DNA of 64,000 bases from Alloascoidea hylecoeti (Eukaryota), in NCBI GenBank assembly GCA_001600815.1, contig BCKZ01000019.1:311981-375980 (forward strand). The letters run 5' to 3'. Position numbers and translations under genes: made by a program. This document shows positions 1 to 12,292 of the stretch, piece after piece. Each line of letters opens with the position of its first letter. The stretch's first letter is position 1. The notes beneath the pieces were generated by a model that worked only from the letters and a program-made list of their open reading frames with translations, made no database searches and was not told where the DNA came from.

Positions 1-997
1 TTATAAACAATACTTCTCCCATAATTATAAACAATGATTTAAATAATGATAAACTAATGAATCCAAATAAAATCAACTTAAAAACATTGGAATATGCTAA
101 CAATTAAAATTTAAATGACACAAAGGAAAGAAAAAAAGAGGAACTTTAAAGAGGAGGAATACAATTAATTGGAAAAAATAAAAAACTTATCATAGATGTA
201 GGTTTTAAATGTTTGGTTAGAGAGTGATAATTAAAATTAATAATAATGATTAAAAAAAAATTTTTTTTTGAATTGAATTGAATAGAATAAAAGATAAAAG
301 TCAAATGATTGTCATTAGTTAAGGAAGTGTCTTGTTCATAAATATAGAAAAAAAAGGAAAACAATAAAAAAAGAGTAATTAATGTTGTTGATTTTGATTT
401 TTTTTGCATACATGTTTTTTTTTTTTTTTTTTTGTGATTGATTGATAAGAACAATTTCGGTTTGAAATTTGAATTAAATTAAAAATAGAAATTGATTATG
501 TTGAATAAATCAATTGATTAATATGACATCATCTCAATTATTAAAAATATTTTTAACAAAAGAGGGGAGTCCAAATGATAATAACATCATAAGATAAATT
601 CCAACTTTTTTTTTTTATCCACAACAGAAAGTAGTAATTCTAGTCCAAAATTTATTATTTTTCGATGATCCTGAATCATTTCTTGTATTTGTAACCGCCA
701 ACTGTTGTTGTTGATGTTGTTATTTCAATTTTAATTAACTTATTTCATGCTTACATATCCGATATGCAGTGCAGATCAATCATCAAATGATCTACATATG
801 TTTCAGATTTATATTAAACTACATGCCTTGCATATTAGATATGCAGGGGTTACGTGGTCATTCATATACTACAGCAAGCCCCTTAATATTATTGCCACCT
901 CCTTATTATTATTTAGCCTATATAGTTACATATATAAGACAGTTAAATCCATTGGATTTAACTCTCTACTTTTTCTTATTCCTATTTAATATACTAT

Positions 998-1045
998 TTA
1001 CTTTATCTTTTTTACTCTATCAGTTTTACCGATTAATAGTTGATT

Positions 1046-1078
<33 letters not shown>

Positions 1079-2574
1079 TTGTTGCTGCTGTTGTTTTTGT
1101 TGTTGTTGACGTTCTTGATGTTGTCGTTGTAATTCTAAAGCATCATTTTGTTGTTTTAATTGTTCTTGTTGATTTTGATATTGTTGGCGTTGATAATCTA
1201 ATTGTTGATCTTGTGATAAAGATGAAAGGTGTTGAGATCGATGTTGACCAGAATATTGAGTATTTCTAAAACCAATTGTTTGATTATTATTAATAATATT
1301 ACTATTTGGTCTTGAAAATCTTTGTTGTTGTTGTAAAGGTTGTTGACGGCCTCTTCTTTGAGCAGAATTAGATCTTAAAACAACATTATTTGGAGGTGGT
1401 AATTGATCACTTAATCTTGCATTACTAATACGCTGTTGTCTAATTCTTTCTCGATCACGATCAGGTGGAGTAGCATGCCCATAACCATGTAAATTTGGTT
1501 TCCTGTTAATTTCAGTATCAAAACCTCTACCACCGTTTAATTTCTTCCAATCATAATTACCATCTTCAACTTCTCCAATAGATAATAAAGCATCTGTAAA
1601 TAAACCACGTAAATAATCATAATCTGGAGTATCTTCAAAACTTAAATTTCTAACATAAGTTAAATATTGACCAAATTGAATTGGGAAACCTTCACATAAT
1701 TCCATAATAACAGTAGTTTGTTTTTTTTCACCAATTTTTTCATATTTTTGTTTGTTTGTTGGTGCTTTTAAACCCTGCCATGGTAAACTTCCTCTTAAAA
1801 AATACATAAAAACATGACCTAATGCTTCTAAATCATCACGTCTTGACTGTTCACGACCAAGATGAGTATTTATACTCATATATCGAGCGGTACCACTTAA
1901 ACTTTTCCTTTCACGATAAGGAATATGTCTCTTTGATTTTGGGTCTCTATAAAATTTAGCCATTCCAAAATCAATCATATAAATCATATCAGAAGATTTT
2001 GTACCAGGTCTACCGATTATAAAATTATCAGGCTTAATATCCCGATAAATTAAATCTCGTTCATGGATTGTTTGTACTCTGGAGATCATTTGTTTTGCAC
2101 ACATGACGACGGTCTTCACTGAAAATCGACGACCACACCAGTCGAATAGGTCTTCTAAACTTGGTCCTAGGAGATCCATGACAAGGATATTATGTAGACC
2201 TTCTTGTCCGAAGTAATAAACATTGGGGATACCGACTAAAATAGCAATAAAAAATAAAAATAAAACAAAGCAAAAAAGATAAAAAAGAGGTTAGATAAAG
2301 AAATGATTTGGGTCTTTTAAAAGAGTTACATACCACATCCTGCTAGTAAACGATAAGCTCTGTATTCATCTCTTAATTGTGGAGCCTCACTCTTCCGTGG
2401 TTCCTATACAAAAATGTTAGAACAAAGTAGATTTATCACAAGCGTTGGAAAACTTACAAATTTGATTGCCACCTGCTGATTGTTAAGAAGGTTGGTTCCT
2501 TCAAAAATGACACCAAACGAACCTTCTCCGATTTTCCGTCCGACTCTGTAATGAACGCCAATAATGTTGGACAT
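998..2574 (-). CDS. YCK2: Casein kinase I, Yck1/Yck2 (Cki) type. Exons 2574-2458, 2403-2334, 2235-998; probable true C-terminus encoded at 719-615
   Basis: Spliced product reads [21 protein letters not shown]...[19 protein letters not shown]...[15 protein letters not shown]...YRDIKPDNF...DFGMAK...[25 protein letters not shown]. Introns 2404-2457 (GTAAGT..CTAAC..TAG) and 2236-2333 (GTATGT..CTAAC..TAG). YCK1 vs YCK2 cannot be distinguished. Confidence 0.93.
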
Positions 2575-2700
2575 TTTGCTTGTTTTCTGTAAAAGTGGAG
2601 GCTGTGTGAAGATACGAAGAAACTAGAGCTGACTAACGCATGACTAATCGTATCGATGCTACTTTTTCCTCACCATCGTGAAAGTTGGAAAAACATCGTG
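2575..2700. promoter_or_regulatory. Very compact divergent promoter shared by YCK and EAF3
   Basis: Only 126 bp between the two divergent ATGs. Contains a TGACTAA direct repeat at about 2630-2647. Confidence 0.6.
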
Positions 2701-3710
2701 ATGCTGGAACTGGGATCCCGTTGTTTGGCTTATCATGGCCCCTTGCTGTACGAAGCAAAAGTCCTCAAACTCCATGAGCCTGGAAGCAACATGGTCCTGA
2801 TAAAAGAAGGCACGTTCAATACTCTCGAGAGCGCGGGGCTTGCTGAGGAATACACATCCCAACTCACCTATTATATACATTACAAAGGATGGAAGGCCAC
2901 TTGGGATGAATGGGTACCTAAAGAGCGTGTCTTGGAGATGAACGAAGAAAATATTAGAACTCAAAGGGAACTCAAACAAGCTGCCTTGGATGCAACAACT
3001 TCTTCATCCAAAAGAAAAGGAAGAAGCGAAACACCAGCAGGAGATGATAAAACTCATGATCATTTAAAAAAAAGAGTACGTGGTGCTGACCCTGATCTTG
3101 AAAGAGAAGAAGATTATTTAAAACGTCCAGAAATTAATTTAACAGTATCAAGTTCATTAAAAGCAAGACTTGTTGATGATTGGGAACATATTACAAGAGA
3201 TCATCAATTAATTTCTTTACCAAGTAAAACGAATGTTATAGATATTTTAAATATGATTAAAGATAATATTCCAAATGAGAAAAAAGTTATTGGCTCAACT
3301 GAAGCGGATATTTTAAATGAAGTTATATCTGGTTTAAAATTATATTTTGATAGATCATTAGGTTCTATTTTATTATATAGATTTGAAAGACAACAATATC
3401 TACAAATTAAAAAAAAATATCCAAATAAACCTGTTACTGAACTATATGGTGGTGAACATTTACTTCGTTTATTTGGTATGTTATTTCAACTTTACTCTAA
3501 CCTTTTTCTCTGTTGTTTTAACTAACTTAATACTTAGTATCTCTCCCTGGTTTAATTGCACAAACAAGTATGGATCAACAAAGTGTTGGTATTTTGAAAG
3601 ATCATTTAGAAGAATTTCTAAAATATATTGAAAATAATCAAGATAAAGTATTTACAGAAACTTATACCAATGCTTCTCCAGCTTATGAAGCATTAGCTTT
3701 AAGTGGTTAA
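2701..3710 (+). CDS. EAF3: Eaf3/MRG15 chromodomain + MRG domain subunit of NuA4/Rpd3S. Exons 2701-3475, 3538-3710
   Basis: CLAYHGPLLYEAKVL, IHYKGWKATWDEWV, LVDDWE, LLYRFERQQY, YGGEHLLRLF|VSLPGLIAQTSMD. Intron 3476-3537 GTATGT..CTAAC..TAG restores the frame. An in-frame upstream ATG at 2656 is possible. Confidence 0.95.
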
Positions 3711-7216: not shown

Positions 7217-7888
7217 TTATAAAACAAGATCATATTTATCATTTAATAAAATTTCTTCAACAAANCCAGAAGGTAAATCATAGTTTGAAGTATCAATCAT
7301 ACTTCTTATTTCATCCTTTTCTTCCTGATTAACTTTCATGTCAGAAACAATAGTTTTTGTTGTATTGATAAACATAATTATATCATTCAATAATTGTTGT
7401 AATTCTTCTTTTACCTTATTTCCATTACCTAAAAGTGTATCTTTAATAGTTTTACCGATTCCTGATATTGAAACATCTTCATTATCACGTTTAGTATTCC
7501 NAGGTTTGCTCTTCTGCCAGTAATTAAGAACAATATCCCAATCAGCAGTAACATCGTCNTGTGAAACAGAGATAGATACTTTTGAACGTTCGGCGAAAGA
7601 CCTAACTCTTTTAGATAATTGATTCAATAGTAACCCCAGACCATTACGGTCTTCCGGTCTTAAACTTATAGTCTTGATCTCGACATCGTCACGTTTAACC
7701 AGGTTTCCAGCAGCCATTACAATTTCAGTGGGAGTTTCAATGGGAATTTCAGTGGTAGTGGGAGTTAACGTTGAGGTTTCAGTTATGGATACAATTACCG
7801 TTGACATTGTGGTTGGAATTGGGGCAGCTGCTGTCAAACGTGTTGCCAATAATAGGGAAACTAATGTTTTTCCAAAGGAAGTTTTCAT
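7217..7888 (-). CDS. Orphan secreted preproprotein (223 aa) with signal peptide, Thr-rich pro region and three KR sites
   Basis: MKTSFGKTLVSLLLATRLTAA|APIP signal-like N-terminus; LVKR, LSKR and NTKR sites; TATA-like sequence about 85 bp upstream. No family recognised. Confidence 0.75.
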   Translation of the reverse strand: MKTSFGKTLVSLLLATRLTAAAPIPTTMSTVIVSITETSTLTPTTTEIPIETPTEIVMAAGNLVKRDDVEIKTISLRPEDRNGLGLLLNQLSKRVRSFAERSKVSISVSXDDVTADWDIVLNYWQKSKPXNTKRDNEDVSISGIGKTIKDTLLGNGNKVKEELQQLLNDIIMFINTTKTIVSDMKVNQEEKDEIRSMIDTSNYDLPSXFVEEILLNDKYDLVL

Positions 7889-10100
7889 CTTGGTAAAATC
7901 AAATTATAAATGTGATAGTAATTCAAGTATTAATATTTTNAAAGAAATAGAGTGAAGGGGACTGGCACTCTTTATATAATCCGATTAAAATGTTATAGTT
8001 GTTGAAAATGGTTTCTGCATAAATCCATATTAATCGCAGAATCCCAAAGCAGAAATATATTTCAAAATTGTCAATGAATGCATATGCATAGTATTGTACT
8101 TCACTTCACTAGAGTTGGATATAAAAAAATTAGAAAATTTCGAACTCATATTTGTTTCTTCATTTCTTTCTTATTTCAAATTTTGATTTGTTACTTAAGC
8201 TTGTATTCTAACTTATAAATATTAAAGGAGGGGTTTCAAATAAAGTGCGATATTTAAGCGATTTCCTAATCGAAGTTTTATAGCTAGGGAGTTCATGGAA
8301 ACATATACACACATACATTAAGATTATCGATATCTATAACCATGGTTTGAATCGATGCAAACGGAGATACTACTGGATCAGTAGAATATATATAATGGAG
8401 CCCACTGTTTAATTATAAAATGTCTATCAATGATTATAGAAGCTACAGGAAATATATATTTAGATCATATTAAGTGGAAATACTGTATTACCTTATATTC
8501 ATGCAATTTACTATAGGATCAATGATATATAATTTATAAGATGAACCTCTTTAAAATATACCCCGAAAACCATGGCCACACCCCATTATTACCAGAAAAC
8601 GGAAGATACCAAATTTGAACGATATATTAATATGCATATTAAGTTACCAACTACAGCTCCTTATTTAGTTCCAGATTTTAATACTGGTAATTTAGGAAGA
8701 TCAAGATCATATAACTTGGAATTTCTCATTAGATATGCAAATCAGCCCAGGGAGCCGCCGTGTCTAAAAGCCTTGAAAGGAAAATTAGGCTTAGGATCAT
8801 TACAACATTATAGACGAGGTTGTAAGCATGATAATAATAATGTTTAGCATTGATTTTTTTTCTTGTTGATAATTATTAATTATTCTTTATTCTAATTTCC
8901 AAGAAACAATAGTTTCATATACTTGAACCAGTAAATAAATGTCATTTTCACAATTTCATATGTCATTAAATGACCTTCTGATATTCCAAAATTATGTTAT
9001 TGTTTGATTAATCATTAATACTTATTGATATATTGCTAATATATTTTCATGTAACTTATATCTGACCATAATATTATACCAAAACCAATGGTACCGTACT
9101 AGATATTCAAAATCACTAAATATTGTAGTTATTATTATTATTATTATTATGACCTCTTATAATTGATAAAAATTGAAATCCAAAAAATCAAATTTTTTTC
9201 AGTTTTATTATTATTTTCTTGGTTGATTTTTTCATTTTCGATATATATATTATTTCATTGATAATTTTTCTATAAATTAAAATTGTAACCTTCTAGAATA
9301 TTTATGGATCAAACGGTTATGTTGGATGCTAGGATCAAACAATTTTGATTATGTAATTGATACAACTGATTGCATTGAACCTAATACACCCCGGTTTTTA
9401 ATAGACTGCTGGCAGCAGTATGCAGTGAGACGTAAGCGGGATGTTCCGACCAACTTTTGGTTATTGGTTATTGATGTGGTTTTCATTATTGTTTTATCAG
9501 TTGTGTATAGTTGATGAGGAGGGTTGAGTTGAACAAGAATGTAGCCGGGATCTGAATCGACAAAGGATCCGAGCATATTTAGTATGTCATAATATTAACA
9601 TATTAGGTAATATATTAATATTGATACTAGAGTAGCACGTGCTAGGAGCGTTTGAAGACTGCAGGAATTCATAAGTGAAAGGATGAAAGAATGAACCAGG
9701 GACCAGAGATTACGACATTAGGAAGATCACAGCAAGCCGTGTGAGGAATCGTGTCGTGACCGAGCAACCGAACAAAGTGGTCTCAACAGTGGAAGTTGAA
9801 ACGGAGGATTCTCGAAGTTGGTGTTTTCGGTCGAAGGTTTCGTGCCAAGACCGAAAAATGGGCATAGTAATTATAATACAAATCCGTTGGTCCTTCAAAC
9901 TTCAGCTTCACACCGCCAAAAGGCGAGCAGACCATTAGCATTGCAATCGGAAAGATAGAGGACCCTGCAGGAAAGAGGAGTTTTGAGTTGTATTCAGTTC
10001 AGAGTCAGTTAAGCCTTGTTAGTGCTGCGCTAGTCCTGCAGGTGCTACAAGGGGTAATTATGGTTGCATGCATACACACCCGTTTAATATTTCTACTCTT

Positions 10101-10291: not shown

Positions 10292-12292
10292 ATGTCCGCA
10301 TCCAACAATCTTCCAAAAGTAGCTGAGGCCCATCATGCTCAGACATTATATGCTCCAAAAAACTTCCATAGAGATCATCCAGGTTTCGCCCATCTTCAGT
10401 CCTTCGATCAATATAAAGAAATGTATAAACAATCAATTGATGATCCTGATACTTTTTTTGGAAAACAGGCAAGAGAATTATTATCCTGGTCAAGAGATTT
10501 CAAAACTGTTCATAATGGTGGTTTTAAATATGGTGATTTCTCTTGGTTTATTGAAGGTCAATTAAATGCTTCCTATAATTGTGTTGATAGGCATGCTTTT
10601 GCAAATCCTGATAAAGTCGCTATAATTTATGAGGCTGACGAACCAGGTCAAGGTAGAAATGTAACATACGGTGAATTATTACGTGAAGTTTCAAAAGTTG
10701 CTAATGTTTTGGCAAGTTTTGGTGTTAAAAAAGGTGATACAGTTGCTGTTTATTTGCCAATGATTCCTGAAACTTTAATCACTTTATTAGCAATTGTTAG
10801 ATTAGGTGCTATACATTCTGTTGTATTTGCTGGGTTTTCTGCTGGTAGTTTAAGAGATCGAATTTTAAATGGTGATTCAAAAGTTGTTATAACAACTGAT
10901 GAATCAAAACGTGGTGGTAAAACAATTGATACAAAAAAAATTGTTGATGAAGCTTTAAAACAATGTCCAAATGTTAAAAATGTTTTAGTTTATAAAAGAA
11001 CTGGTAATCCAATTCCATGGAATAAAGAAAGAGATTTTTGGTGGCATGAACAAGTTGAAAATCAAAGACCCTATTGTCCTCCTGTTCCAGTTAATTCTGA
11101 AGATCCAATTTTCTTATTATATACTTCTGGTTCAACTGGTACTCCAAAAGGTGTTGTTCATGCAACTGGTGGTTATTTATTAGGTGCTGCTTTAACTGCA
11201 AAATATACGTTTGATTTGCACAAAGATGATAAATTATTTACTGCTGGTGATGTTGGTTGGATTACTGGTCATACTTATTGTCTTTATGGTCCTTTATTAT
11301 TAGGTGCAACTTCTGTTGTTTTTGAAGGTACTCCTGCTTATCCTAATTTTTCAAGATATTGGGATATTATTGATGAACATAAAATAACTCAATTTTATGT
11401 TGCTCCAACTGCTCTAAGGCTTTTAAAAAGAGCTGGTGAAAAATATATTCATCATGATTTATCTTCATTAAGAGTTTTAGGTTCTGTTGGTGAACCATGT
11501 GCTCCTGAAGTTTGGTTATGGTATGAGCAAAACATTGGTAAAGGTAATTGTCATATTTGTGATACTTATTGGCAAACAGAAACTGGTTCTCATATTATTA
11601 CACCATTAGCTGGTTCAAGTCCAATGAAACCAGGTTCTGCTTCATTTCCATTTTTTGGTATTGATGCAATGATTATTGATCCTGTTTCTGGTGAAGAATT
11701 AGAAGGTAATGATGTTGAAGGTATTTTAGCAATTAGAAAACCATGGCCATCAATGGCTAGAACTGTTTGGGGTGATCATTCAAGATTTTTAGATATTTAT
11801 TTAAAACCTTATGCTCCTTATTATTTCACAGGTGATGGAGCTGCAAGAGATCATGAAGGTTTTTATTGGATTAGAGGTAGAGTTGATGATGTTGTAAATG
11901 TTTCAGGTCATAGATTATCAACTGCTGAAATTGAAGCAGCATTATTGGAACATCCATTAGTTGCAGAATCAGCTGTTGTTGGAATTCATGATGATTTAAC
12001 TGGTCAAGCAGTAAATGCTTTTGTATCATTAAAAAAGAAACCTGAAAGTATATCAATGATTAAAAAAGAATTAATTATAACTGTTAGAACTGAAATTGGT
12101 CCCTTTGCTTCACCAAGGAAAATTTTATTAGTTGATGATTTACCAAAAACAAGATCTGGTAAAATTATGAGAAGAATTTTAAGAAAAGTTTTAAGTGGTG
12201 AAGAAGATCAATTAGGTGATATTAGTACTTTAAGTAATCCTGCAATTGTTGAACATATTGTTGATGTTGTTCATGCTTCTGAACAACGTTAA
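10292..12292 (+). CDS. ACS2: Acetyl-CoA synthetase (AMP-forming)
   Basis: [58 protein letters not shown] motifs. ACS2-like by N-terminus; paralogue call tentative. Confidence 0.95.

Follow-up and report, generated by a model that had tools for sequence, protein, structure and literature searches.

The segment that interrupts a casein kinase I gene near the start of the window (the whole stretch of 64,000 nucleotides of Alloascoidea hylecoeti that was analysed) is the LTR of a retrotransposon inserted into an exon of the gene, and not an intron. It is very probable that this is a young LTR retrotransposon insertion in one gene of the Yck1/2 type, that only part of sample S1 carries it, and that it belongs to a recent expansion of the element. 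The element does occupy this site, though in a heterozygous or subclonal state.

The kinase gene and the inserted LTR

The interrupted gene lies on the minus strand and encodes a Yck1/2-type casein kinase I, with two introns and a long last exon (Table 1). The CK1 kinase domain is present, the best homologues include budding-yeast proteins named YCK2 or casein kinase I, and proteins of Trichomonascus and Blastobotrys stand near the top of the list. No kinase protein of the same species occurred among the homologue matches listed, of which the best reached 80% identity over half of the region, and a search with the low-complexity linker as query gave no matches. Apart from the kinase frame, a separate minus-strand frame ends in ...TRITTFCCG; this stranded tail contains a C-terminal Cys-Cys peptide resembling the FW..I..FCCG ends of homologues, and CC falls within the last 6 residues in 114 of the 120 kinase homologues among the matches listed. 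The peptide is outside the reach of the frame of the inserted allele.

Table 1. Features of the kinase gene and of the insertion, in window coordinates
Feature	Position	Strand	Basis
324-bp LTR (TGTTG...TAATA), antisense to kinase, possibly a collapsed full-length element	715..1038	+	sequence
Target-site duplication, copy 1 (GTTGA)	710..714	+	
Target-site duplication, copy 2 (GTTGA)	1039..1043	+	
Exon 1, Yck1/2-type casein kinase I (ATG at 2574)	2458..2574	-	sequence
Predicted intron 1 (donor GTAAGT, CTAAC at 2420, acceptor TAG)	2404..2457	-	sequence
Exon 2 of the kinase gene	2334..2403	-	sequence
Predicted intron 2 (donor GTATGT, CTAAC at 2294, acceptor TAG)	2236..2333	-	sequence
Exon 3 as far as the insertion, encoding a PF00069 kinase domain (E 4e-16) plus the Gln-rich linker	1044..2235	-	
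13 LTR-coded residues and early stop (TAA 1000-998), inserted allele	998..1039	-	
Stranded end of exon 3, host tail ...FWTRITTFCCG (palmitoylation peptide), stop 617-615	615..713	-	

A preliminary description of this DNA had reported that the kinase frame stops at 998 with its tail detached, and this was confirmed, the early TAA being distinct from the one that closes the tail. The gap, given there as about 300 nt, exists but is 324 nt plus one 5-nt duplication; likewise the minus-strand tail, said to resume at 719, does run to 615, but its first residues QH (719-714) are the LTR end plus one base, and host sequence starts from 713.

The search for other genome copies that the same description had suggested was run against the own genome with window 700-1050 and returned 14 near-full-length matches, revealing a recent insertion. 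All 14 full-length copies share identical 324 bases and each is flanked by a perfect 5-bp direct repeat of its own, against a chance expectation of about 0.002 per site, so the duplications are not due to chance. The middle of the target duplication is A/T-rich, positions 2 and 3 being A or T in 13 of the 14. Patterns for the two LTR ends locate the same 14 places in the assembly, and the 5' end pattern adds three more, namely two older relatives and one fragment at a contig end. The LTR begins with TGTTG and ends with TAATA, thus with TA rather than the usual CA; we treat terminal TG...CA as a usual LTR trait and not as a defining one, and among yeast LTRs it holds for "most elements" (PMC4139406). 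A purine tract directly precedes the LTR start (position 715) in contigs of two sequencing runs, as AAGAGGGAG in run X3 and as AAAAGGGAG in run X4, closing 563 further letters, and in run X2 a 593-letter contig (30 + 563) stands at the same place before the LTR start. A DNA transposon or MITE was rejected, since the element has a purine tract ahead of it and no terminal inverted repeats. When the antisense LTR was folded, z was -2.25, to which no weight was given.

Several features of the LTR itself were observed in passing. Compared with its older relatives, the young LTR has about 75 extra bases (window 745-830), and an imperfect 20-nt repeat with 77-nt spacing (750-769 and 827-846) is possibly a duplicated enhancer segment. 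TATATA motifs occur at 919-936; a promoter on the plus strand of the LTR would fire antisense into the kinase gene.

When the element and one copy of the duplication are removed, the kinase frame is open through the Gln tract into the FCCG tail and contains no stop; thus the inserted allele, if translated, would have its last 31 host residues, including Cys-Cys, replaced by 13 LTR-coded residues. Yck2 of S. cerevisiae is palmitoylated at its C-terminal Cys-Cys by Akr1, and without the terminal peptide it goes to the cytoplasm (PMC3145546); by this analogy the truncated kinase would putatively escape palmitoylation and stay cytoplasmic. The gene resembles Yck1/Yck2 of S. cerevisiae (PMC3145546) in its kinase domain, Gln-rich linker, aromatic pair and C-terminal Cys-Cys, but differs in that three such genes occur in this genome (L031, L032 and L033) and that the assembled allele of one of them is cut by an LTR. 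The paralogue tails end in FCCG (L032, 86%) and SCCG (L033, 79%), and two further CK1 genes, L034 and L035, end without Cys-Cys.

It is highly improbable that the LTR is becoming an intron, weakly spliced out of some transcripts of one allele so as to give both a soluble and a membrane-anchored kinase. In-frame GT..AG pairs do exist, an ATAAC at 723 lies 17-21 nt ahead of the CAG at 704-702, and the three pairs named in the preliminary description (1015-702, 1029-671 and 1001-682) restore the frame as claimed; however, 27 other GT/GC..AG pairs do so too, 30 pairs that bring the tail into frame having been listed in all from 1500 downward, and frame alone therefore means little. The donors before the early stop read GTAAAA or GTAAAT, against GTAAGT and GTATGT in the introns of the gene, and the sole good donor, GTAAGC (754), comes after that stop. 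The lack of CTAAC was rightly noticed before: none occurs on the minus strand between 1043 and 640, where the ATAAC at 723 and a CTAAT at 838 occur, whereas the two introns of the gene have one each. Nor does anything suggest adaptation at this site, the copies being identical and lying in both orientations to host frames, and with an empty allele and two paralogues rescue is unneeded. The earlier proposal of a weak intron that toggles between two kinase forms finds no support in what is one of 14 identical LTRs of mixed orientation without the splice signals of the gene; from the proposal of a recent insertion turning into an intron, the recent insertion into the exon survives, while the second half is likewise unsupported, since removal of the element and duplication already restores the frame.

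Inserted and empty sites, and the copy number of the element

Contigs of four runs out of ten (X1-X4, none of them RNA) were compared with the window, X5-X10 having a small share or none; X1 and X2 are from sample S1, and X3 is a metagenome. An X1 contig matches positions 449-742 with zero differing letters, across the left junction and 28 bases into the LTR, while X2 and X3 contigs match up to 716 and then continue with letters of the right flank, which is the empty site. The inserted and empty forms thus both exist in S1, so that not the whole of this sample can carry the insertion; it may represent one allele of a diploid, a sub-clone or mixed culture, or two DNA preparations. Positions 1034-1193 were skipped as a repeat, so this comparison covers the left junction only and not the right one (1038/1039), X4 has no contig over 381-704 and leaves the left flank uncovered, and no single contig spans the whole site. 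X1 is not independent of the assembly, the main LTR of S1 being identical to that of the window, and the best-matching run may be the assembly source; moreover, run contigs drop variants, which makes allele shares unreadable. Over the kinase region 1194-2700, X3 and X4 agree with the window in every letter, but their LTR is a variant with 3 substitutions (in X3 also a one-base gap). In X2 and X3 the match of the empty-site contigs extends three bases beyond what plain removal of the element predicts (window 710-716), so the empty allele seems to have one codon more than the allele inferred for the time before the insertion, still in frame; the extra codon would fit a second haplotype, but could also be a feature of the aligner.

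The empty site in X2 and X3, the location in a simple repeat and the restriction of the run comparison to the left junction would all be in keeping with a misassembly, in which a high-copy repeat was threaded into the CAA tract and the join is present in no cell. We hold this to be most unlikely, because an X1 contig runs from the unique flank 28 bases into the LTR, and because a perfect 5-bp duplication occurs here and at 13 other sites, most of them outside simple repeats, which is the signature of an integrase. The misassembly at the CAA repeat that had been put forward earlier is thus unlikely at this site, where the X1 contig holds the left junction and the duplication is perfect; a different assembly error, namely the collapse of a full-length element to one LTR, is likely.

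Such a collapse may concern all copies. At 14 of 14 sites the assembly has a single LTR between the duplicated bases, and none is joined to an internal region. Measured on single contigs, the LTR in X2 has a depth of 10037, the internal contig next to it one of 4971 and the kinase one of 58.3, giving ratios of 172 (LTR/kinase), 85 (internal/kinase) and 2.02 (LTR/internal), though contig depth is no copy number and such ratios are rough; the LTR/kinase ratio in X1 is about 172 (172-173). The corresponding ratio in X3 is 9.6, for a contig with LTR and internal parts; in X4, contigs of this mixed kind give about 11, and one that holds the LTR only gives 23. That 14 assembled LTRs have no internal junction despite this depth means that the assembly has lost full-length copies. 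A 16-nt internal-end pattern taken from X3/X4 had no exact match in the assembly and, with at most 2 mismatches, 99 matches against 130 for the control.

The simplest reading assigns most LTRs in S1 to full-length elements, and the 324-bp "solo" in the kinase gene is probably a full-length element collapsed through its two identical LTRs, rather than a product of recombination. A true solo LTR, such as remains when the two LTRs of an integrated element recombine, is unlikely by comparison and differs only in what sits at the site, the effect on the kinase being unchanged. The one LTR between duplicated bases at each of the 14 sites is exactly what it predicts, and depth would accommodate it, as 14 true solos would lift the expected LTR depth from 9943 to 10351-10759 and the observed 10037 is within plausible bias. 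However, the LTR/internal ratio in X2 is as expected if nearly all LTRs are in full-length elements, the assembly, which joins none of the 14 to an internal region, has certainly lost such elements, and the Gypsy-7a_cRei burst of 86 copies in the Chlamydomonas laboratory strain CC-4532 showed no solo LTRs (10.1101/2022.06.16.496473). That burst is similar to the present case in its many new sites in one strain and few elsewhere, some of them coding, but it concerns a gypsy element of an alga and was shown by long reads, while expansion here is inferred from contig depth alone. In the accessible parts of the literature consulted, we found no direct yeast parallel for LTR collapse in short-read assemblies or for strain-specific bursts.

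Depth counts integrated elements and free cDNA alike, and the high depth in S1 might stem mainly from free linear cDNA of the Tca2/pCal kind and not from about 85 integrated copies per genome, leaving a few dozen insertions. Just 14 insertion sites are in the assembly, and for Tca2 one strain is described with about 50 extrachromosomal copies per cell (PMC4139406). On the other hand, the ratio of LTR to single-copy depth is equal in the two S1 runs, as fits genomic DNA but also one shared preparation, and in X2 a further flank abuts the LTR start at single-copy depth (58.5); we consider the free cDNA doubtful. Tca2/pCal of Candida albicans is likewise a budding-yeast Ty1/copia element of strain-dependent high abundance, but it ends in TG..CA and is mainly extrachromosomal, whereas 14 duplicated integration sites are found in the present assembly (PMC4139406).

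Superfamily and primer site

The internal region of the young element adjoins none of the 14 assembled copies, and its membership in Ty1/copia, which is likely, therefore rests on relatives. Two older relatives, L016 and L017, have LTRs that are 90% identical, about 75 bases shorter and end in TATTA. Directly after these LTRs stands GATTTCCAATCTTT, followed by a frame encoding both a CX2CX4HX4C knuckle and the protease motif DSGA, behind which both elements break off; this primer-type site and gag/protease start after the 5' LTR are thus seen in the relatives and not in the young variant itself. The gag-like frame of L017 had no Pfam match. A further relic, L015, whose start lies about 0.4 kb behind a primer-type site identical in sequence to that of L016 and L017, has protease, integrase-like and RVT_2 frames in copia order, the protease and integrase motifs being recognized by eye and RVT_2 by match. 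Older relatives are also broken by nested elements: gypsy-like frames lie in L085:2495-7437, and a copia RT in opposite orientation is nested at L086:2502-4199.

LTRs and solo LTRs of budding-yeast elements, Ty1-Ty5 of S. cerevisiae, provide the general background for comparison. With the Ty1/copia LTRs of yeasts, including Tca of Candida albicans, the young LTR shares a length within 127-780 bp, the TGTTG start, the 5-bp duplication with its A/T-rich middle and the purine tract before the LTR, and the relatives share a primer site that matches an internal part of a tRNA; unlike these LTRs, it ends in TA and not in CA (PMC4139406).

GATTTCCAATCTTT was found at L016:1745-1760, at L017:1741-1756 and at 19 genome places, and is complementary to the anticodon arm of tRNA-Ser(AGA) at every position but one, where a C faces the first anticodon base. 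Searching the genome with a 14-nt pattern yielded 29 places, against 1 for the control; 10 belong to the AGA type and 19 to the GGA type, and among 12 loci examined, tRNA-Ser(AGA) genes were present at 4 of 6 AGA-type loci, and tRNA genes at 0 of 6 GGA-type loci. Judged from this complementarity, the relatives are putatively primed by a tRNA-Ser half with inosine at the first anticodon base, that is tRNA-Ser(IGA), and it is possible that such a primer is shared by several copia families of this genome.

The nearest likeness is the plant Ty1/copia element Bianca, whose primer is a half tRNA-Ile with the first anticodon base A edited to I (PMC6317226). The primer site is in both cases complementary to a half tRNA with an A-to-I change at the first anticodon base, but the relatives of the present LTR match tRNA-Ser(AGA), instead of the tRNA-Ile of Bianca (PMC6317226) or the tRNA-Arg(UCU) and tRNA-iMet reported for internal primer matches of yeast copia elements (PMC4139406). 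A fungal copia clade with an internal tRNA-Lys match has also been described (PMC5445492). Within the accessible parts of two of these sources, half or internal primers are described only for Met, Ile and Arg tRNAs (PMC6317226, PMC4139406), and no tRNA-Ser half primer was found in the literature searched, which was mostly open-access; a tRNA-Ser half primer would thus add a type beyond those in PMC4139406 and PMC6317226. A GATTTCCAATC-type site together with an integrase before the reverse transcriptase, if present in the young element, would mark it as a copia element with a tRNA-Ser half primer.

Other insertion sites and significance

Five of the 14 copies lie inside host coding frames, namely those of the kinase, a GH16 protein, a P-type ATPase of the PMA1 kind, a tRNA ligase and Gtr1/RagA. 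The tRNA ligase copy (L013:1501-1824) splits the phosphodiesterase domain of a protein that has one strong genome match and one weak match at 25% identity; the others are at L007:1501-1824 (PMA1-type ATPase), L004:1502-1825 (GH16, with the domain split) and L008:1506-1829 (Gtr1/RagA, 3 codons ahead of the stop). Two copies sit at the 5' edge of frames, those of a kinase and a Gti1/Pac2 protein, the first of them (L005) lying 5 codons past an upstream stop of the kinase frame; these two positions are relative to frames and not to exons. Of the remainder, two are in old copia relics and five at sites without a long frame across.

The element is in sense orientation in the PMA1-type and Gtr1 frames and antisense in those of the kinase, GH16 and tRNA ligase. 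Such mixed orientation to host frames means that the element is not one that is spliced out by design, and an introner-type element was rejected on this ground and because the element ends are not GT..AG. Ty1-Ty4 of S. cerevisiae insert near tRNA genes, unlike the 14 copies here; targeting to tRNA genes was discarded, as a tRNA gene is within about 1.5 kb at 0 of 14 copies. TRL1 and PMA1 are essential in S. cerevisiae, which argues that the tRNA-ligase and PMA1-type insertions are not fixed. Broken or oddly spliced genes in this assembly may be fresh insertions, and not the normal state of the species.

We conclude that a young LTR retrotransposon, most likely of Ty1/copia, has inserted, in the direction opposite to the gene, into the last, Gln-rich exon of a Yck1/2-type casein kinase I gene that is one of three, its integrase duplicating 5 target bases, as is seen at the site. 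The inserted allele, if translated, would end after 13 LTR-coded residues without Cys-Cys, and its kinase would be cytoplasmic by analogy with Yck2; present in only part of S1, on one diploid allele or in a sub-clone, the loss would putatively be buffered by the intact allele and by the two paralogues, whose Cys-Cys tails were found. The event would be part of an expansion that one LTR variant has recently undergone in S1, and this variant appears to insert without tRNA targeting and to be unpurged from genes.

A wider reading, which we advance tentatively and hold to be somewhat short of probable, is that in S1 a Ty1/copia element has freshly expanded about eightfold in the chromosomes, with about 85 full-length copies per genome equivalent where about 10 would be found otherwise. 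This element would be untargeted, with TG..TA ends and an inosine-edited tRNA-Ser 5'-half primer, and would be a natural mutagen of genes, hidden in the short-read assembly as 14 "solo LTRs". Tentative to the same degree is its corollary, by which a tRNA ligase, a proton pump and a casein kinase have been hit and the kinase insertion is one footprint among these. If the expansion is chromosomal, this would be a very active copia without tRNA-gene targeting, suited to studies of copy-number control and to insertional mutagenesis. The kinase case is in itself an ordinary retrotransposon insertion of little weight, affecting one of three paralogues with an empty allele present; the value for follow-up is in the possible expansion in one sample and in the tRNA-Ser half primer.

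Two minor observations concern the rest of the window. A divergent gene at 2644-3525 on the plus strand, which we take to be Eaf3/MRG-like, faces away from the kinase gene; its first ATG, near 2700, and that of the kinase, near 2574, are about 130 bases apart. The only four N bases of the window fall at 7265-7940, in or beside a 228-codon frame with a signal-peptide-like start, and are perhaps heterozygous or collapsed repeat sites.
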